From: Chiloscyllium plagiosum
Taxonomy: Eukaryota
NCBI RefSeq assembly: GCF_004010195.1
Contig: NC_057753.1
Span: 10,458,351-10,499,886 of the forward strand
Direction: 5' to 3'
DNA: 41,536 bases
Part shown: positions 236 through 35,740 of the stretch, piece by piece
How positions within the stretch are numbered: the stretch's first letter is position 1
Layout: every line of letters begins with the position of its first letter
Position numbers and translations under genes: made by a program
Notes under the pieces: model-generated
What the model was told of the DNA's origin: nothing
Database searches by the model: none
Seen by the model: the letters and a program-made list of their open reading frames with translations, nothing else

Positions 236-517
236 ACCACCTGATGAAGGAGCATCACTCCAAATAGGAGTCCTTCCAAACAAACTTGAACTATAACCTG
301 GTGTTGTGTAATTTTTAACTTTGTCCAGGAGAGAGTGTATTGACCATCAACATCGAGGGCCAAAGGGCCTGTACTGCGCTGTATTCTTCTATGTTCTATG
401 TTCTAACCACCTGATGAAGGAGCATCACTCCAAATAGGAGTCCTTCCAAACAAACTTGAACTATAACCTGGTGTTGTGTAATTTTTAACTTTGTCCAGGA
501 GAGAGTGTATTGACCAT
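178..517. repeat. Exact 170-bp tandem duplication (178-347 / 348-517)
   Basis: Two copies identical by direct comparison; each spans a CR1 tail and a hammerhead-bearing repeat. Confidence 0.95.
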
Positions 518-1039
518 GCTAAATTACCTAAAGTACCCAGGGATGTGCAGGTGAGGGTAGATCGGCTGTACCCTATTAGATGTGTTAGTCGAGGGTAAAT
601 GTTGAGCAATAGGGGTAGGGGAAAGGGCGTGGGTAGGTCAGTGTGGACTNNNNNNNNNNNNNTGGGGAAAGGCAATGGACGGGGGTAGGCTGAGGGAGGG
701 GGACAAGAGAGGGTGGCATGAGAGAGAATGGAGGAGGTGTTGGGTGGAAGAGATAGAATGGACAGAATGCTGTGGATCATAGAGGGCAGTGGACTGGGGG
801 CACAGTGGGTGGCAGGTGAGAATGCACAGGGGCGCTGTGGGTAGTTGCGGCAAATGTCATTTCAATGCAGAACTTTTCTGACAATAGTTGTGAATTCTGT
901 CTGGGTCCCAATGTCAGACTGACATTTTTGTTAGAAAAGCTCTGCATTTAAATTACATTCTTGAGAATGCTATTTAATGCTATTTAAATCTAAAATTGTT
1001 TAATGTATTAGATCTTTGTGACACTGGACTCCTTTGGAT

Positions 1040-1195
1040 ATAAATTGTCATCGTGATCTTATTCCCCACAACCACCTGATGAAGGAGCAGCACTCCAAAA
1101 GGTAGTGCTTCCAAATAAACCTGTTGGACTATAACCTGGGACTGTTACATTTTTAACTTTACCCACCCGAGTCTAACGCCGGCTCCTCCACATCA
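1040..1195 (+). mobile_element. Penelope-derived repeat 3' end (family A) with degenerate hammerhead motif
   Basis: cacCTGATGAaggagcagcactccAAAAggtagtg at 1073-1107 followed by 'aaataaacctgttggactataacctgg'; same repeat at several other sites. Confidence 0.65.
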
Positions 1196-1301
1196 TTTTT
1201 AGTGAACACAGCCCACATCTCCCTGTGCTCCCAGTAAACTTTACAATGCTGATGAAATGACGCACTCTGCACTCCTGAAAAATTTACAATTTGTAATTTA
1301 T

Positions 1302-1622
1302 GGGCACGGTGGCACAGTGGTTAGCACTGCTGCCTCGCAGCGCCAGAGACCCGGGTTCAATTCCCGACTCAGGCGACTGACTGTGTGGAGTTTGCACGTT
1401 CTCCCCGTGTCTGCGTGGGTTTCCTCCGGGGGCTCCGGTTTCCTCCCACAGTCCAAAGATGTGCAAGTCAGGTGAATTGGCCATGCTAAATTGCCCGTAG
1501 TGTTAGGTAAAGGGGTAAATGTAGGGGTATGGGTGGGTTACGCTTCGGCGGGTCGGTGTGGACTTGTTGGGCCGAAGGGCCTGTTTCCACACTGTAAGTA
1601 ATCTAATCTAATCTAATCTAAT
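1302..1622 (+). mobile_element. HE1-type V-SINE, near full length
   Basis: tRNA-like head (A box tggcacagtgg, B box gggttcaattccc), V-domain 'gtgtggagtttgcacgttctccccgtgtctgcgtggg', CR1-like tail and (AATCT)n. Confidence 0.93.
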
Positions 1623-1754
1623 TTCTATCGATACTAGCATTCACTGCTCCATCTGATACACGACATTGAAAACTCAGTGCAGGAGGCCAAAAGAAATGAG
1701 CAGCTTTAAAATAAAAAGCTTTGAGGGTTTCAGTGAGAGTCTGAGCCCGGCATT

Positions 1755-2230
1755 ATGGGCATTCCGGATCTCACTGAGGTACAAGACGAGATCCAGGTGT
1801 TCCTTGAAGGGACCAGTTGGGGAAACTGGGGATCGGGCTGTTGGTACAATTGGCTTATCAATTTAGCTATGTATGTCAGAATAATTTTCCTCTTTGTCAG
1901 TATTGCTATTGTTAGGTGTTTAATTGTTAAGCTTATGAGGTCCCTTAGTGATATAGATTTGCTCTAGAAATTGCTCCTTTTGTAATCCGATGGCTCACCC
2001 ATATTTGATGATGGCAATGATAAATATGACCAGATGAGCTGCGAAGATGGTGGTGCTGCTCTAGAGGATGTTGATGGTTGGAACACCTTGAAGGACATTT
2101 GTTTGGATCAGCCTTCCCTTCAGTGATCGTGGTCCGATCAAAGGGAGGAAATGAGGATGTGGGCATCTGAGAGGTAGGACAAAATGGCTTCTGCTTGGCT
2201 AACTTGGTCTGAACAGAGTTCATTTAAAAT
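1755..2230 (+). mobile_element. ERV remnant 1: env TM C-terminus, polypurine tract and start of 3' LTR
   Basis: ORF 1755-1967: IPD...Trp-rich WGNWGSGCWYNW, then a hydrophobic anchor; PPT aaagggaggaaa at 2140-2151 directly followed by TG. Confidence 0.65.
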
Positions 2231-2761: not shown

Positions 2762-4726
2762 GAACATAGAACAATACAGTGCAGAACAGGCCGTTCGGCC
2801 CTCGATATTGCGCCAACCTGTGGACTATTCTCAGCTCATCCCCCTACACTATACCAAAATCATCCATGAGCTTATCTAAGGATTGTTTTAAATCTCCCTA
2901 ATGTGGCTGAGTTGACTACCTTAGCAGGTAGGGCATTCCACGCCCTTATACACTCTGCATAAAGAACTTGCCCCAGACATCAGTCTTAAATCAATCACCC
3001 CTCAATTTGTAGTTATGCCCTCTCGTACAAGCTAACGTCATCATCCTAGGAAAAAGTCTTTCACTGTCTACCCTATCTCATCCTCTAATCATCTTGTATA
3101 TCTGTATTAAATCCCCCCTTAGCCACCTTCTTTCCAATGAGAAAAGACCCAAGTCTCTCAGCCTTTCCTCATAAGACCTACCCTCCAGACCAGGCAACAT
3201 CCTAGTAAATCTCCTCTGCACCTTTTCCAATGCTTTCCAATACATCCTTTCTGTAATGGGGCGACAAGAACTGTACACAATATTCCAAGTGTGGCCGCAC
3301 CAGCGTTCTGTACAGATGCAGCATGATATTGGAACTCAATCCCTCTACCAATGAAACTTAACACGCTGGATGGCTTCTTAACAGCACTATCCACCTGGGT
3401 GGCAACTTTCAGGGATCTATCTACATTAGATTAGATTACTTACAGTGTGGAAACAGGCCCTTCGGCCCAACAAGTCCACACCAACCCGCCGAAGCGCAAC
3501 CCACCCAGACCCATTCCCCTACATTTACCCCTGCACCTAACACTATGGGCAATTTAGCATGGCCAATTCACCTGACCTGCACATTTTTGGACTGTCGGAG
3601 GAAACCCACGCAGACACGGGGAGAATGTGCAAACTCCACACAGTCAGTCACCTGAGGCGGAAATTGAACCGGGGTCTCTGGCGCTGTGAGGCAACAGTGC
3701 TAACCACTGTGCCACCGTGCCGCCCACATGGACTCCAAGATCCCTCTGCACATTCACACTACCAAGAATCTTTCCATTGACCAAGTACTCTGCCTTCCTG
3801 TTATTCTTCCCAAAGTGCATCACCTCACATTTAGCTGCATTGAACTCCATTTGCCCCTCTCAGCCCAATTCTACTGTTTATCCAAATCCCCCTGCAACCT
3901 GTAACATTCTTTCAAACTTTCCACTACTCCACCGACTTTAGTGTCATCTGCAAATTTACTAATCCATCCACCTATGCCTGTGTCTAAGAAATTTATAAAA
4001 ATGACAAACAGCAGTGGTCCCAAAACAGATCTTTGTGGAACACCACTAGTAACTGGACTCCAGACTGAATATTTTCCTCAACCACCACTCGCTGCCTTCT
4101 TCCAGAAAGCCAGTTTCTAATCCAAACTGCTGAATCACCCTCAATTCCATGCCTCTGCATTTTCTCCATCAGCCTATCAGGTGGAACCTTATCAAAGGCT
4201 TTATTGAAGTCCAAGTATACCATGTCAACTGCCTTACCCTCATCCACATGTTTGGTCACCTTCTCAAAAAACTCAATGAGGTTTGTGAGACACGACCTGC
4301 CCTTGACGAAACCATGTTGACTATGTGAAATCAAATTGTTGCTTGCTAGATGATTATAAATCTTATCTCTTATAATCCTTTCCAAAACCTTTCCTGTAAC
4401 AGAACTCGGGCTCACTGGTCTATAATTACCTTGGTTATCTCTGCTGTCCTTGAAGGGCACAACATGTGCAATCCTCCAGTCCTCAGGTACTATGCCCATA
4501 GACAATGACGACTCAAATATCAAAGCCAAAGGCTCTGCTATCTTCTCCCTAGCTTCCCGGGGAATCCTTGGATAAATCCCATCTGGCCCGAGGACTTGTC
4601 TACTTTCACTCCTTCTAGAATGGATAACACCTGTGCGTAACTAACCTCAATCCTTTCTAGTCTAATATCTCGTACCTCATTCTTCTCCTTTACAATATTG
4701 CCCTTTTCCTCGGTGAACACTGATGA
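2762..4726 (-). mobile_element. 5'-truncated CR1 LINE, disrupted ORF2 reverse transcriptase, interrupted by a SINE
   Basis: ORF 3993-4529: NYRPVS, QHGFVKGRSCLTNL, YLDFNKAFDKVP; ORF 3078-3278: [15 protein letters not shown]...LRGDLI; tail rc agaacatagaacaa. Confidence 0.95.
3427..3725 (-). mobile_element. HE1-type V-SINE nested in CR1
   Basis: Reverse complement of the 1302-1622 element; flanked by acat (3423-3426 / 3726-3729); CR1 reads through when it is removed. Confidence 0.93.
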
Positions 4727-5166
4727 GAAATGTGACAGTTGTAGTGCTCTGTGCAGCTGCTAATCTAATCTGTTTACCACATCTGTCTGTGGCCTGTTGT
4801 TAGCGTGCAACCCCCCCACTTCATAGCTGAGTGGTATTACTTTCACTGACGCAACACTGAGTCTTATCACTTCTGCACAGAGTCTTTATGACTATGTGAC
4901 TTCTGCAGAAGCAATACTTACACACATTTTCCACAAAACCGATCTTTTGAGGGTCAGCGTGGACATTACGGCGGGGGGATGGGAATGAGGGAAGGAAGCT
5001 TAATGTACTGGAGCCAAGGCGCAGAAAGAACAAAGGATGCAAAACCGGCTTCAAGCTGCAATGAGGAATATTGCATGTGCTGTGCTTGCACCTGTTGCAG
5101 TTGTGGGAATCGGGTGCATTTAAAAAATAAAAACAGAAAAGCTATTTATCCCTCCGCCTTCCCAAC

Positions 5167-5460
5167 GTCGTTCCTTCTGTTCCTCCTCACTCGGATAATT
5201 AAGACACATACCTGCGTTTGCGGAGTCTGCTCCCTCCCTGGATTCACTCAAGTTGCCATAAGTGAACAATTCCCCCTCCTCCCATCTATCTCCCTCTCAG
5301 GATGAAGAGTTGCTCAAAGGGAGGGCGATTCACTTTGAAACTGACAGGGCGACTTCCGCGTTGTGACGTCATAAAGGAGTGAGGGACGGGGCGAGCAAAA
5401 GTGACAGTAAAGGAGGCGGGGCGAAAGCGTCAGCGGGCCGCCGCACTGCCTTGCAACAGC
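5167..5460 (-). promoter_or_regulatory. CpG-rich promoter + non-coding exon-1 module, paralogous to the ZNF gene 5' end
   Basis: Aligns with 20375-20610; ETS site acttccg 5352-5358, CRE tgacgtca 5364-5371, GC boxes; minus-strand donor CAG|GTATGT at 5211. Confidence 0.6.
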
Positions 5461-5503
5461 AGGGGAGGAGAACACACTTTCCACAAACCCCTTCAAAGAA
5501 TCC

Positions 5504-5725
5504 CTACAGTGTGGAAGCAGGCTACTCGGCCTCACCGACCCTCCCAAGGGTAACCCACCCACATTCGTTCCCCTATCCCCATTGCTCGACATTTAACCCT
5601 GAGTAATGCACCTCCCCTGCACATTCCTAGACGTTATGCCTAGTTTAACGTAGCCTATGCACCCTAACCTGCACATCCCCAGGCACTATGGGTAACTAAG
5701 CATAACCAATCCACTTTAACCTGGA
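5504..5725 (-). mobile_element. Degenerate HE1-type SINE 3' portion
   Basis: 'tacagtgtggaagcaggc...acatttaaccctg...acctgcacatcc' matches rc of the SINE tail; orthologous position 20720-20893. Confidence 0.7.
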
Positions 5726-5728
5726 CAA

Positions 5729-6714
5729 AGTTTAAAATCACACAACTCCAGGTTGTGGTCCAACAGGCTTCTTTGGAAGCAGTAACTTTTGGGGTGCCGC
5801 TTCTTCATCAGGTGGTTGTGGAATATAAGATCCTAAGACACAATTTATAGCAAAACATTACAGCGTCCTCCCACTGAAATGGCATATTGAACAACCTGGA
5901 TTGTTAAGTCTTTCATCTTTTAGAATGGTACAGGTATCATTACGATGTTTTCCAGCAACACATTTTCAGCTCTGATCTCCAGCATCTTGCAGTCCTCACT
6001 TACTCCTCATTAGAATGTAAACCCCAGAACTTCTTGTTGTCACCTTCTTGTGATAACAAGGTTTTATAGCAAAAGGTGACATCTCAGCTCAGACAATGCA
6101 TCAAAGGTCAGAGTCTGCCTGTGTCCCAATCTTGAGTCAGACTGGTTCTATTTCCAAAGTGGAATTTACAAACTATTACAAGTATTGACTGCCTGCAGAT
6201 TGTGCATTTTTTAAGCAAAATAGAATGTATCTGCAAATATACATCCGCGCACACGTGCGCACAGGTTTGTTGGGTGAATTTATATTTGCAAAATTACATC
6301 TTACTTTGCTCAAAAACTGCATGATTCCATCCAAGATTCTGTAAATCAGTCTAACCATTGTGGCACAGACAACCTCACACAGGGGAGCTCACACCTTCAA
6401 TAAATTATCTGGGCTGACAAGACACCAATTGGTAAAGTTCACTTGAGAATTTAACTATTAAAAAAAGTTTTGTGATTTCCATGTGGAAGAACTGAAACTA
6501 ACATGGTCATTCGAACAGATGAGAGACTTAACAAACATTCCAGGTCTTTTTCAATATATAATTTCAGTTACATCACACTGTAAACTGTTGCTATAAATTC
6601 TGTGTCTTACAATCTTATATTCCATAATCCCCTGATGAAGGAGCTGCAGTCTGAAAGCTAGTGTTTCCAATTAAACCTGTTGGACTATAACCTGGTGTTG
6701 TGTGATTTTTAACT
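5729..6714. mobile_element. ~1-kb imperfect palindrome of two inverted Penelope-derived family-A ends
   Basis: Left end agtttaaaatcacacaac... is rc of right end ...gttgtgtgatttttaact; hammerhead motifs at 5780-5814 (-) and 6629-6663 (+); centre near 6240-6280. Confidence 0.75.
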
Positions 6715-6880
6715 CTGCAAATACACATTCACTCCCATGAACTTCTGAGCGCATATGTGCATGACAGAGAGAAAAAGTCTACATCAGTGTTATATGTCTC
6801 TATGTCTATTTGATAACAGATGCTTTATTTCTGTTGATGTAAATATTGTGGTAAATCTTAGCTGGGTAATAATAGTTAGA

Positions 6881-6884
<4 letters not shown>

Positions 6885-6913
<29 letters not shown>
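6885..6913. repeat. (GA)n microsatellite
   Basis: agagag... run; much shorter in the paralogous block near 21321. Confidence 0.95.
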
Positions 6914-6917
<4 letters not shown>

Positions 6918-7049
6918 CTCAAGTAGGCACCATAAGAATCCTGGGAAACCCCAATTTCTGGTTTACTTCCTAATGAACAAACATTCAGCACGATCACCTA
7001 TTTATTTCTGATTTTGTTTCATTTTTCTTGTTTTATTCCCTGCGATGAT

Positions 7050-8225
7050 GTGGGAGAGTTGTTAGATTTGGGTCAGCCATTTTGTCACATATTAAAGTCT
7101 GGAAACCATTTTGAATCTCATCTTAGTGCCTACTTGCTAAAGCTTATGTTTCTCAGGCTCAGCAGAGACTGTTGGCCTTGCAGCTGCACTGCTCCCTGAT
7201 AAACAAATTCTTTCCTTGCATAGGACTTTATTTCCATCCTCCACAGTTGTCGAGTCAGGCAGGAGATACCCTGGTTCTGCCAGGTCACTGGCCGATATCC
7301 TTTGAGAGATGAAATATAGAGGGTGGTTGCTGATTTTGTTGTGTCCAAAGGAAAAGGAAAGCTTGCCAGGGACAAAAGTGCTGTTAGAAATGCTGATACA
7401 ATTCTTGCTACTCAGCCACAAGATACTAATATGAGTACTCAACAGGGTCCTAGCGTCCGGACGTAATGGTGCTGAGAGCACTTACGCTTTACAAAATTAA
7501 TAATAAAGATTTTGCTTGCCCCAGGGTTATGACAGGGGAAACCCTATTTGATAAGCCCGGGACCCACATTGAGGTCCACGGCATGCTTCAAAATGCCCCT
7601 GATCTGTTCGAGTGCCCAACGTTAGTTTGAATTGGGTAGTAGAAAGCTGAAGTATAATTGCTCGCTTCAGGACGTCCAGACTTGAATGAATTTGGCATAC
7701 AGGACACATTGGGCAACTATGAAAGACTCCGTTGTATTTCCCCTGGACTCAATGCAGAGACACGAAAAACTTGCCTTGAAAACAGTGTTCGATTTGCAAA
7801 TGGAACAGCTGTCTGGTATTTAGAGTTTGCACACTTGGTTAGGCAGCTATGTATCACAGCCAGGATTTATGAGACTTAACTCCCTAACTTTGACTGTTCT
7901 GGAAAGTATGCGCTTCATTACCCTTGGAAGGAAGGAACAAACAAAAGCTGACAAACTAAGATATGAAGAAAGTTGGAGAATATTACAGAAAGACACACAC
8001 ACAGAAGTTTGCAGAAAGGTTAACACTTCATAATCTGGTTTAAATACACATTTGCCTGGGTATGGTACTGAAATCACAGGGGAAGCCCCTGCTGAAGTGC
8101 ACAAATATGGCCTCAAAAAGGGTACTCCCTCAATACTCAAACCAAAATGTGGGTGACCCCCTGCTGGACTGGTTTGTGTTCATTCTTTGCTGCTGCTTGT
8201 TTCAGTTGAACATTATTGTACACAC
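7050..8225 (+). mobile_element. Possible decayed ERV gag/leader region
   Basis: Non-LINE sequence directly upstream of an integrase remnant; weak capsid-like fragments (QKFAERL, SGLN) near 8000-8045; many stops. Confidence 0.3.
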
Positions 8226-8476
8226 TTACAAACATGGTGGCACCCAGATTTTCGGAAAGCAGCAAAGAAAAGAGCTGAAGCATGTTTAATTTGTAATCAA
8301 ACAAGCTGCATGCTCTAAGAGGGATGCCCTGTGTTTGTTAACCACCTCCTTGCGTGGTCGGCCTTTTTACTTATCTACAACTTGCTTTTATAGAATCACC
8401 TCGCGTACATTGTTATGAATATTGTCTAATAAGAGTAGATGTATTTAGTAGATGAATTAAAACCATCCAAATGACT
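8226..8476 (+). mobile_element. ERV remnant 2: integrase zinc-binding and core N-terminal fragment
   Basis: Manual translation LQTWWHPDFRKAAKKRAEACLICNQ...GLFTYLQLAFIESPRVHCYEYCLIRVDVFSR*IKT, matching retroviral IN CxxC and LQLDF...VDxFSRW motifs. Confidence 0.8.
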
Positions 8477-10937: not shown

Positions 10938-11070
10938 ATCATTCCTGATGAAGGGCTCGTGCCCGAAACGTCAAATCTCCTGCTCCTCGGATGCTGCCTG
11001 ACCTGCTGTGCTTTGCCAGCGCCACACTTTTTGACACTGATCTCCAGCATTTGCAGTCCTCACTTTCTCC
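10938..11070 (+). mobile_element. Penelope-derived short element (family B) with hammerhead motif
   Basis: Same sequence as the 3' end of the GIY-YIG Penelope at 29655-29752. Confidence 0.8.
10941..10976 (+). ncRNA. Minimal type I hammerhead ribozyme motif, catalytic core intact
   Basis: attc-CTGATGA-a-gggc(tcgt)gccc-GAAAC-GTC-aaat: CUGANGA, 4-bp stem II, GAAA, palindromic ACGU stem III, GUC triplet; one mismatch in stem I. Confidence 0.7.
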
Positions 11071-11184: not shown

Positions 11185-11620
11185 CCAGCCTCTCCCTCTA
11201 ACTCAAACCCTCCTGGCAATGTGCTGGTAAATCTTTACCAAACCCCCTCTCATAGTATTCTTCCTACTACAGGGTGACCAGAACTGCACTCAGTACTCTA
11301 AAAGTGGCCTTATCAACATTCTATACAACCTTAACATGTCCCAAATCCTATACTCAACAGTGTGGACAATGAAGGGAAGTGTGCTAAATATCTTCTTCAC
11401 CACCAAGTCTACCAGTGATGTAACTTTCAAGAACAATGAACCTGAACACGACCCAGGGCCCTACCTTTACCTGTACAAGTCTTGCCCTTCTTTATTTTAG
11501 CAAAACGCAACCCCTCGCTTTTATGCATACCCCTCTCATATGCTCATACTTCATCACAATCACACTTTACCAAGCATGTACAGATGCAAATACACTCTCA
11601 TGCACAAACTCACACACACA
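11185..11620 (-). mobile_element. Old CR1 fragment plus flank, paralogous to 16572-17095
   Basis: Shared CR1-to-flank junction 'caaaacgcaacccct.gctttta..catac'. Confidence 0.7.
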
Positions 11621-12404
11621 CTCTTTCCTGATGAAGGGCTTTTGCCCAAAACATCGGTTTTCCTGCTCCTCGGATGCTGCTTGCCTTGGTCTGCTTTTCT
11701 AGCTGAACGCTGAACCTATTACCCTCTAGTTCTGGACTCCCCCATTCAAAGGAAAACACCATGTCTATTTACCCTATCCATGCCCCTTGTGATGTTATAA
11801 AAGTCTATAACGTCACCCCTCAGACTCTGGCACGATGGAGAAACAGTCCCACCCTGTCCTTCCGCCTCGCCTCACTCGGGTAATTAAGACACATACCTGA
11901 GTTTGCAGAGTCTGCTCCCTCCCTGGATTCACAACAGTTGCTACAAGTGAACAGATTTCTCCCCACCCCTTTCTCTTGCCCCTCTCTGGATTCACTCCAG
12001 TTGCTACAAGTGAGCCTGCTCCGTCATTCATTAAGATCATGGCTGATCTATCCATCGTCTCAGCTCCTCCCCCCTGCATTGTCACAAGTAATCCCTTAAT
12101 TCCCCTACCAGGCAAAAACCCATCCAACTGTGTCTTGAATATACGTAATGAAGCTGCCTCTACTGCTTCCTTGGGCAGAGAATTCCATAGATTCACTGCT
12201 CTCTGGGAAAAGCAGTTCCTCATCTCTGCCCTCTGGAAAAAGCAGTCCCAAAAGCAACTCCCCCTAACATTGAGGCCTAGTCTCACCCACCAGTAGAAAT
12301 GTCTGGTTAGGGTAGGACTTCATCCCCACAGTGCAATTATGGTGGGAAGAAGTTTCCATTGGTAGGGGAGACAAGAACCATAGGGCACAGCTTTAAGGGT
12401 AAAG

Positions 12405-12776
12405 CTCTGGACCAGATGGGCCAATGGGCTGAGAAGAGGCAAATGGAATTTAATTCACGTAAATGCGAGGTGCTGCATTTTGGGAAAGCAAATCTTAGCA
12501 GGACTTAATGGTAAGATCTGAGGGAGGGTTGCTGAACAAAGAGACCTTGGAGTGCAGGTTCATAGCTCTTTGAAAGTGAAGTAGCAGATAGGTAGGATCG
12601 TGAAGGCAGCATTTGGTATGCTTTCCTTTATTGGTCAGAGTATTGAGTACAGGAGTCGAGAGGTCATGTTGCGGCTGTACAGGACATTAGTTAGGCCACT
12701 GTTGGAATATTGCACGCAATTCTGGTCTCCTTGCTATCGCAAACATGTTGTGAAACTTGAAAGGGTTCAGAAAAGA
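12405..12776 (+). mobile_element. CR1 LINE ORF2 fragment
   Basis: ORF 12600-12788: [19 protein letters not shown]...LERVQKR. Confidence 0.9.
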
Positions 12777-13027
12777 TGTTCTTCGTAGGATATGTGGAAC
12801 AATCCATCTTCCGCAACTACACTGGCCCCACCCCCCACCTTTTCCTCCGCTACATCGATGACTGTATCGGCGCCGCCTCGTGCTCCCACGAGGAAGTTGA
12901 ACAGTTCATCCACTTCAACACCTTCCATCCCGACCTCAACTTCACCTGGACAGTCTCAGATTCCTCCCTCCCCTTCCTCGACCTTTCTATTTCCATCTCA
13001 GGCGACCGAATCAACACGGACATCTAC
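12777..13027 (+). mobile_element. Penelope-like element reverse transcriptase fragment
   Basis: FVGYVEQSIF...FLRYIDDCIG...FHPDLNFT...LPFLDLSI...TDIY: RYIDD and LPFLD motifs of PLE RT. Confidence 0.92.
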
Positions 13028-13678
13028 GTCACCCCTCAGACTCTGGCACGATGGAGAAACAGTCCCACCCTGTCCTTCCGTCTCTCCTCACCCCACCCAG
13101 GTAATTAAGACACATACCTGAGTTCGCAAAGTCTGCCCCCTCCCTGGATTCACTCCAGTTGCTACAAGTGAGCCTGCTCCGTCATTCATTAAGATCATGG
13201 CTGATCTATCCATCGTCTCAGCTCCTCCTCCTTGTATTGCCGCAAGTAATCCCTTAATTCCCCTACCATGCAAAAACCCATCCAACTGTGTCTTGAATAT
13301 ACTTAATGAAGCTGCCTCTACTGCTTCCTTGGGCAGAGAATTCCATAGATTCACTGCTCTCTGGGAAAAGCAGTTCCACCTTATCTCTGCCCAAAAGCTA
13401 CTCCCCCTAACATTGAGGCCCAGTCTCACCAGCAGAAATGACTGGATAGGGTAGGACTTCATCCCCACAGTGCAATGACGTTGGGAAGATGTTTCCATTG
13501 GTAGGGGAGACTAGGACCAGAGGGCACAACTTTAAGAGTAATGGGGAGATCTTTAGGAATAGAGATAAGCGATGTCGCCTTTTCTGCCAACAGCAAGGAG
13601 CAGGCGCAATGTTTTGATGACATCAGCAACCATGCGTGCTGCTTGTTCACACCGAGAGGCAGACACAATATGCTCTGT

Positions 13679-13866
13679 TGAAAAGTGTGGTGCTGGAAAA
13701 ACAGCAGGCCAGGTAGCATCCGAGGAGCAGGAGAATCTTCAGAAGGGCTTATGCCCGAAATGTTGATTCTTCTGCTCCTCGGATGCTGCCTGGCCTGCTG
13801 TGTTTTTCCAGCACCACATTTTTTAACTCTGGTACTCCAGCATCTGCAGTCCTCACTTTCTCCTCC
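13679..13866. mobile_element. Family-B Penelope-derived fold-back element
   Basis: Arms 13681-13737 and 13765-13823 are reverse complements; loop holds agggcttatgcccgaaa (hammerhead stem II + GAAA). Confidence 0.85.
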
Positions 13867-14402: not shown

Positions 14403-14479
14403 ATATATTTTCCCCATGTGGCTCGACATTTTATTGCTTTTGCATTTTGTCAGGCTGCTCAACTTTATGTCTTTTCCCC

Positions 14480-16930: not shown

Positions 16931-17009
16931 GCAACCCCTTGCTTTTATTCATACCTCTCTCAGACACACGCTCTCTCTTAGACACCCCCCCCAATACTCT
17001 AACAGGCTT

Positions 17010-17650
17010 ATACTCCATCACACTCAATTTACCAAGCATGCACACAATCTTATGTGCACTCTCACGCACAAACTCACGTGCACACAACCACACTCTCTCA
17101 TGTACGCGCACAAACGTAACTCTATGGAGAGAATTTGTATTGGCAGAATTATATTTGCAGATACTTTCAATTTTGCTCAAAAAGGGCACAATCTGCAGGC
17201 AGTCAATCCATGTACTACTTCATAAATTCCTACTTTGGAAATAAAACTAGTCTGATTCATGATTGGGATACTGACAGACTCGAACCTCACACCTTACATG
17301 CATTGTCTGAGATGAGATGTCATTTTTTTTATATAAAACTTTAAGTCATCTCGAGAATACGACTTATAAGGTGTTCTAGGACTTACATGTTAATGAACCG
17401 AAATCTGCAACCCACTCTAAAAGATAAAAAACTTAACAGCAATCTAGGTTTGTTCAATATATCTTCTCAGTTGCATGACACCGTGATCTTTTGTGATAAA
17501 ATCTGTGTCTTATGATCCTGCTCCACAGCTACCCGATGAAGGAGCAGCACTCCGAAAGTTAGTGCTTCCAAATAAACCTACTGGACTATAACCTGGTGTT
17601 GTGTGATTCTTAACTTTATCCACCCCAGTCCAATATCAGCGCCTCCACAT
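17010..17650 (+). mobile_element. Penelope-derived family-A element with degenerate hammerhead
   Basis: Homologous to rc of 5729-6240; tacCCGATGAaggagcagcactccGAAAgttagtg at 17530-17564. Confidence 0.7.
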
Positions 17651-17860
17651 GGTTTCTAGTGAACACAGCCCACACCTCCTGGTGCTGCCACTACACTTTA
17701 CAATGCCAATGAAACGACGCACTCTGCATTCCTGAAAACTTTACTATTTCTAACGGTACTAGCTACTCCTTCTGATACACGACATTGGAAACTTAGTGCA
17801 GGAGGCTGAAAGAAATGAGCAGCTTTAAAACAAAATCCTCTTGGAGCTCAAAGCCTTTAA

Positions 17861-19232: not shown

Positions 19233-19360
19233 ACTGCAAAGTGAGGACTGCAGACACTGGAGAGTCAGTGTCGAAAGGTATGGTGCTGGAAAAGTACAGC
19301 AGGTCAGGCAGCATCCAACGAGCAGGAAAGTCAACGTTTCGGGCATAAGCCCTTCATCTG
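19233..19360 (-). mobile_element. Family-B Penelope-derived element inside the ZNF 5' UTR
   Basis: rc cagatga-a-gggc(ttat)gccc-gaaac-gtt followed by the family-B tail. Confidence 0.8.
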
Positions 19361-19398
19361 TTCATTTTGAGATTTCTGTCTTCAGATCTTAAAATATT

Positions 19399-20680: not shown

Positions 20681-20894
20681 CTGTCCAGTTTGCAGATATC
20701 CCTTCCGTTTAGAGCATCTACACAGTGTGGAAGCAGGCCACTCGGCCCAACCAGCTACACCGACCCTCCGAAGAGTAACCCACCCACAACAATTGCCTAC
20801 CCCTACTCTACATTTACCCCGAGCACTACACCTAACCTGCATATCCCTAGGTACTATGAATAATTTAGCATAGCAAATTCCCCCTAACCTAGAC

Positions 20895-21150
20895 AAAGTT
20901 AAAAATCACACAACACCAGGTTTGGGTCCAACAGTTTTATTTAGAAGCACTAGCTTTTGGAGTGCTGCTCCTTCAATAGGTGGTTGCAGAGAATAAGATC
21001 AAAAGACACAGAATTTATGGAAAAACATTGCAGTGTCCTGCCACTGAAATGATACATTGAACAAACCTGGATCGTTAAGACTTTAATCTTTTCGAATGGG
21101 TTGCAGGTATCATTAATATGTAAATCTCAGAACTTCCTGTAAGGCGTCTT
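20895..21150 (-). mobile_element. Family-A Penelope-derived end (single arm)
   Basis: Orthologous to the left arm 5729-6050; degenerate hammerhead at 20948-20982. Confidence 0.75.
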
Positions 21151-21347
21151 CTCAAACACATTCACTCCCGTGGACTTATGCGTGTGCGAGTGCATGAGAG
21201 AAAGAAAATGTCTTTATCCATCCAGTATATTTCTATACCTATTTGAGAACAGATACCTTATTTCTGTTGGTGTGAATATTGTTGTAAATCGTAGCTGGGT
21301 ACTAATAGTTAAATGTAAGGGAGAGAGAATTCCTAAAGTATTATTGT

Positions 21348-22834: not shown

Positions 22835-24510
22835 AGAGTCATACAGCACAGAAAGAGACCCTTCACCCCAACTCGTCAGTGCCGACAAGATATCGTCTCA
22901 TTTGCCTCCATGTGGCCCATATCCCTGTAAACCTTTCCTATTCATATGCTCATCCAGATGCCTTTTAGATGTTGTCATTGTACCAGCCTCCACTACTCTG
23001 GCAGCTTGTTCCATGCATGCACCACTCTCTGCGTAAAAAAGTTGCCCTCGGGTCTCTTTTAAATCATTCCCCTCTCACTTCAAACATATGCCCTCTAGTT
23101 TTGGATTACCCTAGGGAAAAAAAATCCCTGGATATTCATGCTATCCATGCCCCTTATGAATGTCCATAAGAGCACCCCTCAGCCTCCGAAGTTCTGGAGA
23201 AAATAACTCTGTCTCTGTACTTCAAACCCTCCAACTCTAGCAACAGCTTTGTAAATCTTTTCCGACCCATTTCAAAGTTTCACAACATCTTTCCTATAGC
23301 AGGGAGGCCAGAACTGAACACAAAAGGAGTGTAACCAATGTCCTGTACATGACCTCCCAAATCCTATGCTATGACCAATAAAGGAAAGCATACCAAATGC
23401 CTTCTTCACTATTGTATCTTCCAGAAATTCCACTTTCAAGGAATTCTGAACCTGCACTCCAAGGTCTCTTTGTTCTGCAATACTCCCCTTACCTGAGTCA
23501 GTCCTGCCTGGATTGCTTGACCAAAGTGCAAACCACACATTTCTCTAAATTAAACTCCATCTCTAACTCCTCGGGACATCAGTCCATCTGATCAATTCTA
23601 TTTTATATCAAACTTTCTTTCCTCTCTCATTCCCAAAGAGCTGAAAATCTCCATCCGACACACTCCCCCTCCATTCTCACTTTGCTGAACCTAATCCCTG
23701 CTGTACCACATCCTGAAGGGTCTGGTTCATGCTGATTAACAGGCCCACACTCGGGGATCTAATTGAAATGTACAGAATCCTGAACGGCCTGGACAGAGTG
23801 GAAGCTGGGAAGACGCTTCCTTTTGGAGGAGAGACTAGGACCCGAGGACACAGCCTTAGAGTAAATGGAAGACCTTTTAGAACGAAGGTAAGGAGTAACT
23901 TCTTCAGCCAGAGAGTGAGGAATCTATGGAATTCACTGCCACAGAAGGCTGTGAAGGCGAGGTCATTGAGGATATTTAAGACTGAGATAGATAGGTTCTT
24001 GAGTATCAAGGGTGGAAGAATGAGGTTGTGAAACTCATCAGCCATGATTAAACGGTGGAGCAGACCCAATGGGCTGAATGGCATAATTTTTGCTCCTATG
24101 TCTTATGGTCTGTTGATGTCCTGGAAGAGAATTGGGAGCAGGAGTTGGCCATTTGGTCTTTCGAGCCTGCACCAGCATTGAACACATCATAACTGGATAT
24201 GAATCTACCTGCATATAGATGAATAGGCTGAGACTTTTTCACTGGAAGAAAGTGAAGACTGCAGATGCTGGAGATCAGAGTCGAGAGTGTGGTCCTGCAA
24301 AAGCACAGCAGGTCAGGGCTGATGAAGGGCTTATGCCCAAAATATCCATTTACCTGCTCCTCGGATGCTGCCTGACCTGCTGTGCTTTTCTAGCACCACA
24401 CTCTTTTTCACTGAAGCACAGGAGGTGACCTTATAGAGGCTTACAAAATCATTAGGGGTATAGATGAGGTGAACAGCAGGAGTCCTTTCCCGAGGATGGG
24501 CGTTTCAAAA
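22835..24510. mobile_element. Cluster of CR1 fragments (22835-23595 -, 23752-24110 +, 24218-24510 +)
   Basis: GDLIEMYRILNGLDRV...FFSQRVRNLWNSLP; same order as in 8914-10480. Confidence 0.8.
24245..24402. mobile_element. Family-B fold-back element with 11-bp TSD
   Basis: ctttttcactg at 24234-24244 and 24403-24413; inverted arms flank CTGATGAagggcttatgccc at 24319. Confidence 0.85.
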
Positions 24511-24511: not shown

Positions 24512-24642
24512 TACCTTTATCTGCATCTCCCCCTACACCCATCCCTAGTCTTGAAGAAGGGTTACACCCGAAACGTCGACTTCTCCAACTCCTGATGCTG
24601 CCTGGCTTGCTGTGTTCTTCCAGCCTCCTGCCTGTCTATTTT
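24512..24642 (+). mobile_element. Penelope-derived end with hammerhead motif
   Basis: agtc-TTGAAGA-a-gggt(tac)accc-GAAAC-GTC-gact at 24547-24581: perfect 4-bp stem I, C3 to U change. Confidence 0.75.
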
Positions 24643-26117: not shown

Positions 26118-26184
26118 GGATCAGTGGTGCTGGAAGAGCACAGCAATTCAGGCAGCATCCAAAGACAGGCAAAATCGACGTTTC
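26118..26184 (-). mobile_element. 67-bp Penelope-derived insertion with 24-bp TSD
   Basis: agcatcaacctgtctgcttattct at 26094-26117 and 26185-26208; insert rc begins gaaacgtcga. Confidence 0.88.
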
Positions 26185-27016
26185 AGCATCAACCTGTCTG
26201 CTTATTCTATTGAACTGACCTTGGTTAAGTGTTGCAAAACACACAAAGCAAATCTTTCCTCTCCTGAAAATCTTAGTACTTAACACAATAAAATTCACTT
26301 TGAAATATTGTTCATCCAAATTTTACCAAGCACATACTACAGATTCAACATCCCACAATGACACTCGGTTTTGTTATGACCTTTAGTTCTGAAGAGAAAT
26401 GTGAATACCTAGTGATTAACTGGAAGAACTGTTCATTAAGTTTTCATATTTTTAAACAAATAAAAATTACCAATTAACTGGAGTAACTTAGCAGAATGGG
26501 ATGTATGGCCTTAAATTGTAAATCTAGTTTTCTTTACTTCCCTGTAAGAGTTCCCACGAATCTTTACATTAATCTTGATAGTTCATTCACTTTCTGGGAA
26601 TAGTCCAAGGCATCCAAGGTTTCACTTGAATCCTTCTCAGAATTCCAAGTATTCCTGGTAATTGTATGTGGAAAAAGATCTACCACCCTGGCAACCCACA
26701 AAAGCAAAATTGGCCAAACTACCAAAACACCCAGAATGCCTCAGCAGGGACCAAGCAGGCTGACAAGCGAAACTAGACTGCATTCACAGACAAGGGAATA
26801 CCTGTACACTTAAAGCACCCACTAACAATGACAGAGCACCACAGCTATCCCAAAGCCCTGAGGGCAGTTTCACAACCCAGCAATACCAAAGCCACACAAA
26901 GAACAGGTCAGACAGAGAGGCACCAGCAAGAGCCTTGCTCCCGGGACAGGACAATGGAAGTACCTCACCACATCAGAGGAGACATTAGCACCTACCTGCG
27001 AAGAGGAATGGGAGCT

Positions 27017-27790
27017 CCAGACCGTTTCAGCCTCTTACAGATTGACTTCGCACACCTGCCCCAAAAACAGGGTTATAAGTACATCCTGGTCATCACAGAC
27101 ATGTTCTCCAAATGGGTGGAAGCATTTCCCACAAGAAAGGACGACACACACATGGTAGTAAAACGCCTCCTCAAGGATGTCATCCCCAGATTTGGAGTTC
27201 CCGGTAGCATAGGGACGGACAGGAGGACTCACTTCACTGCTCGGCTCACAACTGGCATTAGTGAGGCACTAGAGATACTGTGGTGACACCATATCCCCTA
27301 CCAACCTCAGTCTTCAGGAATGGTCGAGCGGATGAGTGGCACCCTTAAATCCACACTGACCAAGATCACCCAGGACACAGGACTGACCAGACCAGACGCC
27401 TTGCCGCTTGCCCTGCATACTATACCTGTGCAGGCAAACTGCATGACTGGGCTCACCCCTTTTGGAGGTGCTTATGGGGTGACCTATGCCCACTGATACC
27501 AGACCCCCAAAACTCTCCCCAGATACAGCCCTTCTCCTGAAACTGAATTATGTCCAGGCCCTGAGCAAGAGCATTGGTGTTACACACGACCAGGTCAGGA
27601 CTGCGTTGCCCACATCCTAAACAGTGCCCATTCAGCTGTTCTGACCAGGGACTAAGTCATGATAAGATCACTCGGAAAGGATTCTCTCTCTCGGAGGTGA
27701 TCCTGCTGATGACCCGGACCGCTGTGAAAGTGGAAGGATGGCCTGCATGGACACATGCCACCCACTACAGAAGGGCTCCACCTCCAATGA
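27017..27790 (+). mobile_element. ERV remnant 3: integrase (gamma/epsilon-like class I), disrupted
   Basis: LQIDF...TDMFSKWVEAFPT...IPRFGVP...TDRRTHF...W*HHIPYQPQSSGMVERM (D,D,E), GLTPF, C-terminal TRTAVKVEGWPAWTHATH; stop at 27284. Confidence 0.95.
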
Positions 27791-27869
27791 AGAGGGACCA
27801 GACAGAAGAAGACACCACTTCAATCGCCGAGGATGGATCCAGCTGCTCGCCTCAGCATCAGCACTCTCG

Positions 27870-29090
27870 GCCTGACCTGTCTGACCATCACACTGTGGCT
27901 TGCTGGTAAACAGGGACAAGGGGGCGAGACATTTAATAATCCGGCGTGACTTGTGGGCCAACATCTTCCTGAGTATGCCCAGAGATTTAACCAGATCTGT
28001 TGCTGGGATCCCCGTCCACTCTCATGGGGGCATTTTCTTTGCCTCAATCCCATTAAATATCTCTGATATTGCAGAGTGTGGCTCGAACCAGATAGGTCCC
28101 TTGGGGTTACCACACTCAAAATACCACCAACATTGACCAAATATGGGGACAACAGCCCAGCCCACTGGAGGTCTGCGGGGTCGCACCTGGACAAATGTAA
28201 AGGGTGGTTTTACCCGGCCTGCAACCTCTCCCATGAACCAATGCTGGCACCAGCACACTTGGGCCACCTCCAGGATCCATCTGTTTGAAATGCACACAGC
28301 CATTCGGATGGGAGGCTGACTGGAGCACTGACTCCCTGCTCCTAACACCCGCAGCACACCAAACCTGCTGCAGAAAGCAGAATTAAACCTACAGGTCCTC
28401 AACAGGACCAGCCAGAACACCACCTTCCTCACCATCTGGACAGAGACCCAGACCTGCCATCTCTAGACCTACAATGGCACCTATTTGATCTGTGGCCACA
28501 AACCCTTCCCCTGGCTGCCATTGTTCTGGACTGGGAGCCCTCACTGCCAGTGAAGCAGCTCTCTACCTGATGGCACCCTGCCATGCAACCCTATGGTTAC
28601 AGATAGAGGCCCACAAACTCGCCACTACATTAGAGGAGATGGTTAACTCCACAGCTGAAGCGCTTGCCCAGCTGAATGCAGAGGCTGTTGCCATCCGTAC
28701 TGTGGCTCTGCAGAACAGGATGGCCCTGGATACCTGCTCACTGCGAAAGGGGGCACACAGAGTCATAGTCATAGAGATGTATATGCACCCTCATTGGTGC
28801 TGACTGTTGCACTTACATTCCTGACCCCAGAGAAAACATCACACAGCTGGCCCAACATATCCGACAGGCAGTTTCTGTCCTGCATGATCAGAACGCCCAC
28901 TGGGACCTATGGGATTGGGTAGCATCCTGGCTGGGCTCATGGACTGCTACAGGGACTGATAGCCTTCATTGCTATCATTGCTGGGATTGTAGCACTGGCG
29001 ATGGCTATCCGACTGTGTTGTTCACGTCTGTGTGCAATCTTGCTACCCTCTGCCCCGGCCACCACTCAGCTAGTACAGGTCGATTGGGAT
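27870..29090 (+). mobile_element. ERV remnant 3: gamma-type env, disrupted
   Basis: NGTYLICGHKPFPWLPLFWTGS (28473), ISD LQNRMALD (28708), CX6CC CTLIGADCCTYIPD (28784), Trp-rich MPER and anchor LIAFIAIIAGIVALAMAI. Confidence 0.92.
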
Positions 29091-29091: not shown

Positions 29092-29752
29092 CAACCTCCA
29101 TATACATTGTATCATCCGTCGTCATTTCTGCCACCTCCAAACGGACCCCACCACCAGGGATATATTTCTCTCCCCTCCCCTATCAGTGTTCCGAAAAGAC
29201 CACTCCCCCTACGACTCCCTCGTCAGGTCCACACCCCCCACCAACCCAACCTCCACTCCCGGCACCTTCCCCTGCAACCGCAAGAAATGCAAAACTTGCG
29301 CCCACACCTCCCCCCTTACTTCCCTCCAAGGCCCCAAGGGACACTTCCATATCCGCCACAAATTCACCTGCACCTCCACACACATCATCTATTGCATCCG
29401 CTGCACCCGATGTGGCCTCCTCTATATTGGGGAGACAGGCCGCCTACTTGCGGAACGGTTCANNNNNNNNNNNNNNNNNNNNNNNNNNNNNNNNNNNNNN
29501 NNNNNNNNNNNNNNNNNNNNNNNNCCTCTCCGTCCCCACCCCCACTCCGGCCTATCACCCTCACCTTAACTTCCTTCCACCTATCGCATTTCCAATGCCC
29601 CTCCCCCAAGTCCCTCCTCCCTACCTTTTATCTTAGCCTGCTTGGCACACTTTCCTCATTCCTGAAGAAGGGCTCATGCCCGAAACATCGATTCTCCTGT
29701 TCCTTGGATGCTGCCTGACCTGCTGCGCTTTTCCAGCAACACATTTTCAGCT
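29092..29752 (+). mobile_element. Penelope-like element 3' part: GIY-YIG endonuclease + pseudo-LTR with hammerhead
   Basis: PCNRKKCKTC...FTCTSTHIIYCIRCTRCGLLYIGETGRLLAERF; attcCTGAAGAagggc(tcat)gcccGAAACATC at 29658-29689; contains an N gap. Confidence 0.93.
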
Positions 29753-30403: not shown

Positions 30404-30710
30404 ATTTACTGAATCTTCTTGCTAGATTTTTTTAATGCACCCAGTTTAAGGAGATTTCTGGAGAGGGAAATTGGCATATGTCTTGTATCCTGGAAGGTTT
30501 GGAAAATAAAAGTAGATAATCCTCCCTGGGAATGGTACAATCCACCCCCCCCCCAATGATTTACTGAATCTTCTCGCTGGATTTTTTTAATGCACCCAGT
30601 TTAAGGAGATTTCTGGAGAGGGAAATTGGCATATGTCTTGTATCCTGGAAGGTTTGGAAAATAAAAGTAGATAATCCTCCCTGGGAATGGTACAATCCAC
30701 CCCCCCCCCC
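30404..30710. repeat. ~155-bp near-exact tandem duplication
   Basis: 30404-30554 / 30559-30710, about two substitutions. Confidence 0.9.
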
Positions 30711-32065: not shown

Positions 32066-32370
32066 TAGATTAGAGTGGTGCTGGAAAAGTACAGCAGTTC
32101 AGGCAGCATCCAAGGGGCAGGAAAAGCGACGTTTCGAGCAAAAGCCTTTCATCAGGAATAGAGGCAGAGTGCCTGCAGAGTAGAGAAATAAATAAGAGGA
32201 CGGTGGGGTTGGGGAGAAATTAGCATAGAGTACAATAGGTGAATGGGGGTGGGGTGGAGGTGATAGGTCAGGGAGGAGGGTGGGGGAAGGTAGCAAGGAG
32301 TACAGTGGGTGGATGGGAGTGGGATAAAGGTGATCGGTCAGAGAGGAGGGTAGAGTGGATAGGTGGAAAA
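32066..32370 (-). mobile_element. Penelope 3' end with hammerhead motif
   Basis: rc ttcCTGATGAaaggc(tttt)gctcGAAACGTC at 32128-32158. Confidence 0.8.
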
Positions 32371-32412
32371 GACTTTCTCCCCACCCTCCTCTCATTTTTT
32401 TTACTTTTTTTT

Positions 32413-32829: not shown

Positions 32830-33121
32830 CACCTTGTCTCAGTCAAATCCATCAAACTCAGCACCACCTTCCTAACCTGCAATCTTCTTCCTGACCTCTC
32901 CGCCCCCACCCCAAGTCTCCGGCCTATCACCCTCACCTTGACCTCTCTCCACCTATCGCATTTCCAACGCCCCTCCCCCAAGTCCCTCCTCCCTACCTTT
33001 TATCTTAGCCTGCTGGACACACTTTCCTCATTCCTGAAGGGCTTATGCCCGAAACGTCGATTCTCCTGTTCCTTGGATGCTGCCTGACCTGCTGCGCTTT
33101 TCCAGCAACACATTTTCAACT
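32830..33121 (+). mobile_element. Penelope 3' end (family B)
   Basis: Near-identical to 29525-29752; hammerhead core has a 3-nt deletion. Confidence 0.88.
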
Positions 33122-33760
33122 ACATGTAATACTGTATAGAACAGCACAGTACAGGCCCTCGATGTAGTGTCGGCCCGTTATCCTACTTTAGGATCAGACT
33201 AACCATCATGCTCTTCACTGTACTAACTTCCATGTGCCTATCCAAGAATAGCTTAAATATCCCTAATCTATGTGACTCCACTACCCATGCCGGCAGTGCA
33301 TTCCATGCACCCACCACTCTGTGTAAAGAACCTACTCTGACACCTCCCCTAAACCTTCCTTTAATTACCTTAAAATTATGACCCCTCATAATAGAAATTT
33401 CTGCCAAGGCTATCCATTCTATCGATGACTCTCAATATTTTGTACACCACTATCAAGTCACCTCTCATCCTTCTTCACTCCAATGAGAAAGGCCTTGGCT
33501 CTCTCAACCCTCCAGTCCAAGCAGCATACTGGTAAATCTCCTCTGCACCCTAAGTTTCCACATCTTTCCTACAATGAGGCAACCAGAACAGAACATAATA
33601 TTCCAAGTGTGGTCTCACCAGGATTCTATAGAGCTACAACATAACCTTGCAACTTTTAAACTCAATACCCCAATACACCATATGCCTTCTTAACAACCCT
33701 ATCAACTTGGGTGGCAATGTTGAGGGACCTGTGGACATGGGCCCCAACATCCCCCTGTTC

Positions 33761-34052
33761 TTAGTGAGTTTTGAGAAGATTTGTATCTCAGGTTTTGAAT
33801 GCAGGTTTGCTCACTGAGCTGAAAGTTTCATTTCCAGACGTTTCGTTACCTTACTAGGTAACATCTTCAGTGGACCTCATGCAAAGCAATGCTGAAAATT
33901 CCTGCTTTCTATGTTTGAGTTTCTTTGGATTGGTTACATCATTTCCTGTGGTGAAGTCACATTGCTTTGCGTGAGGTCCACTGAAGATGTTACCTAGTAA
34001 GGTAAAGAAACATCTGAAATGAACCTTTCAGCTCAGTGAGCAAACCTACATC
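33761..34052. mobile_element. 292-bp fold-back element with two inverted hammerheads (family C), 13-bp TSD
   Basis: Arms 33799-33891 and 33960-34051; TSD catccccctgttc / catccctctgttc. Confidence 0.88.
33833..33874 (-). ncRNA. Minimal type I hammerhead ribozyme motif, fully intact
   Basis: rc: tcca-CTGAAGA-t-gttacc(tagtaa)ggtaac-GAAAC-GTC-tgga; 4-bp stem I, 6-bp stem II, palindromic stem III, GUC cleavage triplet. Confidence 0.8.
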
Positions 34053-34470
34053 CATCCCTCTGTTCCTCCACACTGCCAAGAATCCTGCCTTTCACCCTGT
34101 ATTTTGCATTCAAATTTGACCTTCCACAGTAAATTACTTCACACTTTTCTAGGTTGAACTCCATCTGCCACTTATCAGCACAGTTATGCATCTTGTCAAT
34201 GTATTATTGCAACCTACAACAGCCCTCCACACTATCCACAACTCTACCAACTGAATGTGGGACATGTGGCAATAAATCAAATCAACAAGCTCTCACAAAG
34301 AGCCCTCAGAGGAAATCTGACCCCTGACCAGCACCCTATTTCTCATGCAGATTCAGTATTCTTACATCTATCCTGATGGCGGATCAAGAGGCCATCTTTT
34401 TTGCGAGACTAATAAATGAGTCAAGTTGAGGAAACAACGCCTGTCAATGTCTTTAATAGACACAGATCTA

Positions 34471-34838
34471 GACCAACGTTTACCAGTCTGTCCGCTCGTC
34501 TGGATTGACTTGCTTTCCCTCCAGCTCCTGCAAACCAATAGTTGAACCCCAGGATGACAGAGGAAATGGAAAAAGGAGGGGAAGGTGAGAAAAGAAAATG
34601 CTGTACGTTAGACAGAAGGAAGTTGCAGTCTGGGGTAAAGCTCATTCTTCATTCAGAGAGACACGAGCAGCCGCTTCAGCAGCTCAAAGTCCACCTTCCG
34701 CATTCAGACAATAGGCGGGCTCTGATTGGCAGGAGGACCAATCACCTTCCGGTCCTCCAGGGTTGACCAAAGGTCGGTCTCCCCGTCCATCAGAACCATG
34801 AGGGGCGGGGCAGCATTGCGATCTCACACATGCGCACT
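34471..34838 (-). promoter_or_regulatory. Second type of promoter/exon-1 module (copy 2)
   Basis: ctgattggc and accaatca (opposed CCAAT boxes), cttccgg, ggggcggggc (34802-34811), catgcgca; ggaggacc...ggtcctcc dyad. Confidence 0.55.
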
Positions 34839-35186
34839 AGCACCTCCATTACTGCCCACGGTTGATAGTGATTTCTGGACCTCAAAGGATTGGAGAGATA
34901 ACGCCACCATTAAAGTAATGAAATCAAATGTCGCATATGCCTTCTTAACCGTCCTGTTCGCATGTTGGTGCAGTATATGTCAGGAGTCAATCTTTTAATC
35001 GAGTTTAGATTTATACACTGAATTAAACACTAAAAGTGTTTAACTCTAAACTGTTTCCAATTCAGTGTCAGTCTGTCGCTCTTGTTCTGTCCTCAAATAA
35101 GGACCGAAACAGTGCCCTCCATGTGTGGATTTTCTTTTAGTTTGCAAATTCCAACCTTCTGTTTCGATAATTTATTAAACGTTACT

Positions 35187-35740
35187 CTTAGGGCATCACT
35201 GGCTGGCCAGCATTTAGTTCCCCTTGAAAAGGTGGTGGTGGCCAGACTTCTTCAACTGCTATGCTCCACACACTGTACAATGCCCTGAGGGAGGGAGTTC
35301 CAGGATTTAGACCCAGCAGCACTGAAGGAACAGCAATATGTTTCTAAGTCAAGATGGTGGGTGGCTTGGAGAGTTATTTGCAAGAGGTTGTGTTCCCAAG
35401 TATCAGTTGTCCTGGTCCTTCTAGATGGAGTTAAAAATCACACAATATCAGGTTATAGTCCAACAGGTTTATTTGGAAGTACTAGCTTTTGGAGCGCTGT
35501 TCCTTCGTCATGTGGTTGTGGAGTATGAAGGAGCAGCTCCAAGCCAGTACACTCCAGTCCAATACTGGCATTTCCAAATCACTTCTAGATGGAAGTGGTT
35601 GTTGGTTTGGAAGGTATTTTCTAAGGATCTTTGGTGAATTTCTGTGGTGCGTCTTGTAGATAGTAATCACGAACTGCTTCTGAACAGTGGAGCAGAGAGA
35701 GTGGATGTTTGTGTGTTTGGTGCCAATCAAGCAGGCTACT
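35187..35740 (-). mobile_element. Old CR1/L2-group LINE 3' fragment with a nested family-A piece (35428-35525)
   Basis: 'gagggagttccaggattt.gacccagc' repeat signature; nested hammerhead motif 35480-35514. Confidence 0.6.

Follow-up and report, generated by a model that had tools for sequence, protein, structure and literature searches.

Minimal type I hammerhead ribozymes have been described in Penelope-like elements (PLEs), where they combine the core CUGANGA (CUGANGAH), GAAA and UH with one extra base between positions 9 and 10.1, a G10.1-C11.1 pair, palindromic positions 15.2/16.2 and a short stem I (Cervera and de la Pena 2014, PMC4209133). The PLEs reported there form several families per genome, mostly as single copies, with opposite-strand pairs 100–700 bp apart. 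The activity published for these ribozymes is low (PMC4209133), and eight of nine Xenopus dimer elements did not cleave. PLE insertions are marked by 5′ truncation, inverted neighbours and an optional tail of 30–40 bp (Craig et al. 2021, PMC8557442), and for an anole element the tail has been traced to two start sites of reverse transcription (Frangieh et al. 2024, PMC11167929). Animal retrozymes, by comparison, are built of tandem repeats whose successive units carry hammerheads (PMC7229834; bioRxiv 10.64898/2026.07.22.740005). Here we analyse hammerhead motifs in a stretch of 41,536 nucleotides of the shark Chiloscyllium plagiosum (assembly GCF_004010195.1, contig NC_057753.1, positions 10,458,351 to 10,499,886), hereafter the window. 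These motifs are likely the 3′ pseudo-long terminal repeat (pLTR) ends of at least three PLE families, apparently the residue of truncated and by now inactive insertions. Elements of this kind have already been described, and the present locus extends the 2014 result to shark PLE families. PLEs are reported to have expanded in the introns of the whale shark (bioRxiv 10.1101/443036), and our literature search, with most subscription papers outside its scope, turned up no study of PLE hammerheads in sharks.

The window consists of vertebrate DNA that is rich in repeats and interrupted by four N gaps, in which pieces resembling short interspersed nuclear elements (SINEs) and CR1 are also frequent. 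The closest named proteins to its own are those of Chiloscyllium punctatum and Rhincodon typus. A scan with a descriptor of the minimal type I hammerhead gave two hits without a core change and six with at most one, compared with no perfect hit and a mean of 0.17 with at most one change (maximum 2) in 30 shuffled controls; the motifs therefore exceed chance. The original prediction had counted about 19 minimal hammerheads in three families, and each of the 19 sites is indeed a copy of one family (Table 1). All could be found again from its coordinates, which for minus-strand copies were the low coordinate; copies are named here by the position of C3 unless stated otherwise. Two family B pieces were absent from that list, namely the remnant at 26124-26208(-) and the end piece without motif at 5948-6006. 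Independent insertions number fewer than 19, since several copies sit in duplicated DNA: copies 238 and 408 (motif starts) lie within a 100% identical 170-bp duplicate, copies 1076 and 17533 have 132 nt of tail and flank in common as well as a second block nearby, and copies 5811 and 20979 have 490 nt of flank in common.

Table 1. Hammerhead-bearing copies and PLE protein fragments in the window, with the position of core nucleotide C3.
Positions	Strand	C3	Description
209..327	+	241	Family A; motif 237-273, dead (G12, A15.1, U16.1 changed)
348..517	+	411	100% identical duplicate of 178-347: SINE-like end and dead A copy, motif 407-443; no retrozyme unit
987..1193	+	1076	Family A; motif 1072-1108 (G12>A), tail 1157-1193; 3′ flank common to 17533
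5722..6248	-	5811	Family A; left arm of head-to-head inverted pair, split by B end piece; motif 5779-5815 (G12>A)
6266..6717	+	6632	Family A; motif 6628-6664 (core unchanged, stems weakened); right arm of inverted pair
17134..17652	+	17533	Family A, longest copy, tailed; approximate 5′ limit; motif 17529-17565 (U4>C)
20892..21153	-	20979	Family A; motif 20947-20983 (three core changes); segmental paralogue of 5811
35429..35528	-	35511	Family A; motif 35479-35515 (C3>A, G12>A); AAUAAA 35473-35468
5948..6006	+		Family B 3′ end and tail, without hammerhead
10939..11070	+	10945	Family B; motif 10941-10976 (core unchanged, stem I broken), tail 11034-11070
11618..11703	+	11628	Family B; motif 11624-11659 (G12>A, palindrome lost)
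13677..13863	+	~13737	Family B inverted pair (arms 93% alike, 61 nt); 5′-truncated motif in loop, tail 13824-13863
19238..19364	-	~19360	Family B; cut off at 5′ edge of motif, with tail
24247..24414	+	24319	Family B; inverted arm and tail (24247-24317, -) adjoining copy that starts from C3 (G12>A)
24534..24624	+	24551	Family B subfamily; motif 24547-24581 (C3>U; compensatory stem I/II changes versus B)
26124..26208	-		Family B-related remnant without 5′ core
29525..29752	+	29662	Long family B copy, upstream sequence pyrimidine-rich; motif 29658-29693 with unchanged core but no palindrome
32072..32173	-	32155	Family B; motif 32124-32159 (first stem II pair broken), different upstream sequence
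32830..33121	+	33034	Family B long copy, 93% like 29525-29752; motif 33030-33062 with 3-nt core deletion
33796..33895	-	33870	Family C left arm; sole fully intact motif, 33833-33874, predicted cut after 33837
33957..34054	+	33981	Right arm of family C, 94% like left; motif 33977-34018 lacks C11.1 and palindrome
12767..13036	+		PLE reverse-transcriptase fragment, 82% identical to C. punctatum protein with reverse transcriptase and GIY-YIG
29093..29461	+		PLE linker zinc finger (C-x4-C-x2-C, P0003) and start of GIY-YIG endonuclease; ends at 62-N gap

As originally proposed, the families combine unrelated helices with a common core and pairing. The stem II pairs are GC, GC, AU and GC in family A, GC, GC, GC and CG in family B, GC, GC, GC and UA in the subfamily of copy 24551, and GC, UA, UA and AU in family C, whilst stem I is likewise changed between families with its pairing kept. 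Read by hand, the changes between families are compensatory in both stems, as are those that set the 24551 subfamily apart from the rest of B; changes inside a family mostly break pairs. In all four forms G10.1-C11.1 is the first pair of stem II and an extra base follows A9 (A in families A and B, U in C). Moreover, the palindromic positions 15.2/16.2 are GC in A and CG in B and C, and the monomer has no helix III. The families match the consensus line of PMC4209133 together with four features that are not in the descriptor, and their identity as PLE-type minimal type I hammerheads agrees with that paper in core, extra base, G10.1-C11.1, palindrome and short stem I, as well as in the presence of several families in one genome, the prevalence of single copies and the opposite-strand pairs. 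AAUAAA follows a turtle motif and one Xenopus motif in the alignment of PMC4209133, as it does in family A. Differences from that study are that stem II of A and B has 4 bp compared with 7–8 bp in the schistosome type, and that its supplementary file 2, the one searched, contains no shark. The palindrome that had been called stem III exists as an AGCU- or ACGU-type sequence, but it is kept in only 10 of the 19 copies, one of them a chance ATAT, and it is the 4-nt half of an intermolecular helix III and no stem inside the monomer. Folding of copy 33870(-) gave stems I and II as the lowest-energy structure, the predicted palindrome duplex reaching only -1.7 kcal/mol, and co-folding favoured a swap of stem II.

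A chance resemblance within ordinary repeats is exceedingly improbable. It would fit with the Rfam search of the window, which returned no hammerhead family at E<=1, with the failure of most single copies to satisfy the descriptor, and with an automatic joint alignment and fold of 10 copies that did not recover the structure; family C was misaligned there, so that this last result is uninformative. However, no shuffle yielded a perfect hit, and core, inserted base and palindrome are retained, with compensatory pairs, in three families whose stems are unrelated.

Almost all copies are damaged. The core is unchanged in six of them, from all three families (6632, 10945, 29662, 32155(-), 33870(-) and 33981), and core, stem I, stem II and palindrome are all intact only in 33870(-), leaving 18/19 impaired. 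The 5′ strand of stem I is absent in copies ~13737, ~19360(-) and 24319. Core changes in 13/19 copies bear out the earlier view that most are core-mutated, and the change from CGAAA to CAAAA, singled out there as frequent, is the commonest one: G12>A occurs in 8 of the 13, and the majority of family A in the window carries it. This frequent loss of the general base (G12) can be ascribed to the CpG formed by C11.1-G12. Across the two CpG sites of family A, decay is nearly all to CA (11 CA, 1 TG), and at the G12 site alone the ratio of 5:1 is not significant (p 0.22); in both cases the copies are not independent. Divergence outside CpG amounts to 48/550 sites (8.7%) in family A (seven copies, duplicate 408 excluded) and 40/525 (7.6%) in family B (8 of 10 aligned copies, with the subfamily copy and the remnant excluded). 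At about 8%, the copies are therefore old. As a caution, hammerhead-like hits in shark DNA may mostly be decayed transposon ends.

The anatomy of the copies is that of PLE insertions: they end alike on the 3′ side but differ on the 5′ side, may form inverted pairs placed head to head and sometimes carry a tail of 30–40 bp. Six family A copies align to the longest over 100, 115, 170, 260, 429 and 462 nt, and all six have the same 3′ endpoint. Inverted pairs are found in family A (5722-6248 with 6266-6717), family B (13677-13827 and 24247-24414) and family C (33796-34054), and a tail of ~35–40 nt in two of eight A copies, four of nine named B copies and one B fragment. Truncation, an inverted adjacent copy and the optional tail are shared with endonuclease-bearing (EN+) PLEs (PMC8557442). 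Moreover, the window contains fragments of PLE proteins, one of reverse transcriptase (RT) and one of zinc finger and GIY-YIG, which are 74–87% identical to shark proteins that themselves have relatives with RVT_1 and GIY-YIG. A C-terminal GIY-YIG and a zinc-finger-like linker between RT and endonuclease are also features of EN+ PLEs of the Neptune/Nematis type (PMC8557442). The endonuclease fragment (29093-29461) lies right before the 62-N gap and is followed beyond it, on the same strand, by the long family B copy 29662, so that this open reading frame (ORF) is likely linked to family B. Families A and C are provisionally assigned to PLEs on account of their motif and anatomy.

Several observations weigh against this reading. 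The gap is shorter than the ~290 nt missing compared with homologues, and Pfam matches to the fragments are weak (GIY-YIG at E 0.021, below the cut-off, and no RT hit). The match of C-terminal peptides at 32831, from a permissive tblastn, falls short of significance (E 1.7). Unlike the published EN+ PLEs (PMC8557442), those in the window are present as fragments only, with no full-length PLE and no ORF linked to family A or C, and their likeness to the clade comes from the linker and not from a tree. Many contigs that match family B cease to do so ~10 nt before C3, as would be expected of a short non-autonomous element. Elsewhere, a metagenome scan with the endonuclease fragment gave 345 pattern matches, none of them confirmed, whilst a metagenome scan with the family A pattern and a viral scan with the family B pattern each gave none. 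A broken endogenous-retrovirus-like sequence (26777-29090(+)) abuts the endonuclease fragment; its reading frames, which are in pieces, are putatively integrase-like and envelope-like.

We propose that reverse transcription of the active parent element would begin immediately 3′ of the hammerhead, from one or the other end of the 30–40 nt tail. Such starts were found in vitro for the anole PLE (PMC11167929), and we infer them here. Reverse transcription would often stop early, thus giving a common 3′ end, a retained hammerhead, a variable 5′ end and sometimes a second arm in inverted orientation. Self-cleavage of the parent hammerhead is predicted to require either a dimer joined through the 4-nt palindrome or the help of the element's protein. 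The dispersed copies have decayed by about 8% outside CpG. In vitro, inactivation of the anole hammerhead did not stop insertion (PMC11167929). The anole element, PAc Poseidon, likewise has a tail, delimited there by two RT start sites, yet it is an intact element with a tested protein-assisted ribozyme, whereas the shark families are known from sequence alone (PMC11167929).

The original prediction went further and called much of this material retrozyme-like, a description that is not supported, for the copies are dispersed, 5′-truncated or inverted, and no tandem of complete motifs exists in the window. Of the nine tandem-repeat rows of the window, only one contains a motif, and neither of its two units has a working copy. 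Non-LTR retrozymes resemble the present repeats in being non-coding, in their type I hammerheads and in their relation to PLE pLTRs (PMC7229834; bioRxiv 10.64898/2026.07.22.740005), but the animal type of that name has tandem units of ~150–450 bp with complete motifs in successive units and is expressed as circles (same sources), and no such tandem occurs here. A narrower version is that part of the copies, chiefly a ~85-nt family B unit, represent a short non-autonomous retrozyme- or SINE-like element that is transcribed, cleaves itself, forms circles and depends on PLE proteins to copy it in trans. This we regard as unlikely, and the depth of public DNA contigs bears on it.

Two DNA contig sets were aligned to 32830-35600 (2.8 kb) at 80% likeness. 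Unique stretches have a depth of ~5.9 in one set (X1). The families far exceed this, with a summed depth of 9.8 million at the B motif, 2.3 million at A and about 0.1 million at each arm of C. The depth ratios correspond to ~10^6 copies of B, ~10^5 of A and ~10^4 of C, which are orders of magnitude at best and no true copy numbers. They look far higher than the 4,000–9,000 of PMC4209133, a figure that counts intact descriptor hits. Upstream of the B motif, depth drops stepwise (9.8M, 2.7M, 1.4M), and downstream it drops 25-fold. That the B core is 4–7 times deeper than its upstream sequence, that many contigs end their match just before C3 and that several B copies in the window begin at the motif would all suit a short non-autonomous element. 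Moreover, retrozymes, which derive from pLTRs, are reported from one chondrichthyan (bioRxiv 10.64898/2026.07.22.740005). However, the nine tandem-repeat rows contain no working motif tandem, the only one with a motif holding a dead copy and unrelated flank. The 5′ ends are also ragged, with some inside the motif, and B upstream sequences vary by subfamily, which accounts for the drop in depth. The profile is thus compatible with our preferred reading, namely truncated PLE ends belonging to subfamilies of differing upstream sequence. So large a pool of copies could help to decide whether PLE mobility needs hammerhead cleavage.

Transcripts were followed in one poly(A)-primed single-cell RNA run from one sample (X21), of which ~2% was used, with 6,081 reads aligned to 32830-35600, again at 80% likeness. 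No pile-up of read ends was seen at any place in this interval, cleavage sites included, for which a poly(A)-primed library is a weak test; RNA reads of the anole PAc Poseidon element likewise lack ends at the cleavage site (PMC11167929). Most family A reads end in poly(A) 12–15 nt past AAUAAA (35473-35468). The T-runs lie at 35453 (687 reads) and 35456 (460 reads), which are 15 and 12 nt past the signal and ~30 nt past the predicted cleavage site, and read orientation is 4:1 in the direction of a sense transcript. As the DNA there is not A-rich, some loci probably owe a genuine poly(A) site to family A. Transposon-derived poly(A) sites are reportedly known in mammals, and an open-access-weighted literature search found nothing on a PLE poly(A) site. 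Such a site may shape the 3′ ends of shark transcripts. DNA copies of family A reach ~25 nt past it; the polyadenylated end would therefore not be the start of the copied template, in agreement with internal initiation of reverse transcription.

The same reads raise the question of co-option. If family A served as a 3′-end cassette, its AAUAAA would end host transcripts and intact copies would cut off the poly(A), thereby tuning stability. The two T-runs and the sense-type excess would be expected of such a cassette, and a mammalian Clec2 hammerhead upstream of a poly(A) signal has been reported. However, all eight family A copies in the window are damaged and no cleavage ends were seen, and the poly(A) reads, from a single run of one sample, could stem from one or two genes or from the element's own transcript. 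We therefore consider it very unlikely. An improbable but consequential variant would make family A a hammerhead and poly(A)-signal cassette of some 10^5 copies that provides working 3′ ends for many shark transcripts, with either an amplified G12A ribozyme-dead subfamily or intact copies acting as tail-removing switches. The dead subfamily is at present only a lead; if amplified, it would prove, by a natural example, that PLEs can move without cleavage.

Some minor features of the locus accompany these copies. The same part of a SINE-like repeat, which we take to be HE1-like, follows three family A copies (497-650, 5460-5722 and 20700-20892). Two of these are segmental paralogues, and the third may be another or may reflect target preference. 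CA-rich stretches upstream of copy B11628 (11445-11625) and of the longest A copy (16872-17097) are 85% alike; they are either part of the upstream sequence of family A or the product of a segmental duplication. At 13690-13814 the inverted pair of family B folds into a long hairpin, whose Rfam scores against MIR533 and mir-2756 are below the gathering score. We therefore rejected that identity, the matches reflecting the B inverted repeat; the hairpin probably gives rise to spurious miRNA predictions or to double-stranded RNA.

Two-copy tandems of unrelated sequence occur at 178-517 (100%), 14165-14404 (95%) and 30404-30709 (98%) and are possibly assembly artefacts. A C2H2 zinc-finger gene with 84-bp repeats lies at 18248-19068(-), its frame apparently shifted near 18480, and is surrounded by segmentally duplicated blocks (for example 8699-9715/22626-23593, 9720-10344/23639-24239 and 11974-12402/13132-13541). 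Lastly, reverse-transcriptase fragments of a long interspersed nuclear element, which we presume to be of CR1 type, are present at 3726-4640 and 37455-38567, with many shorter 3′ pieces across the window.

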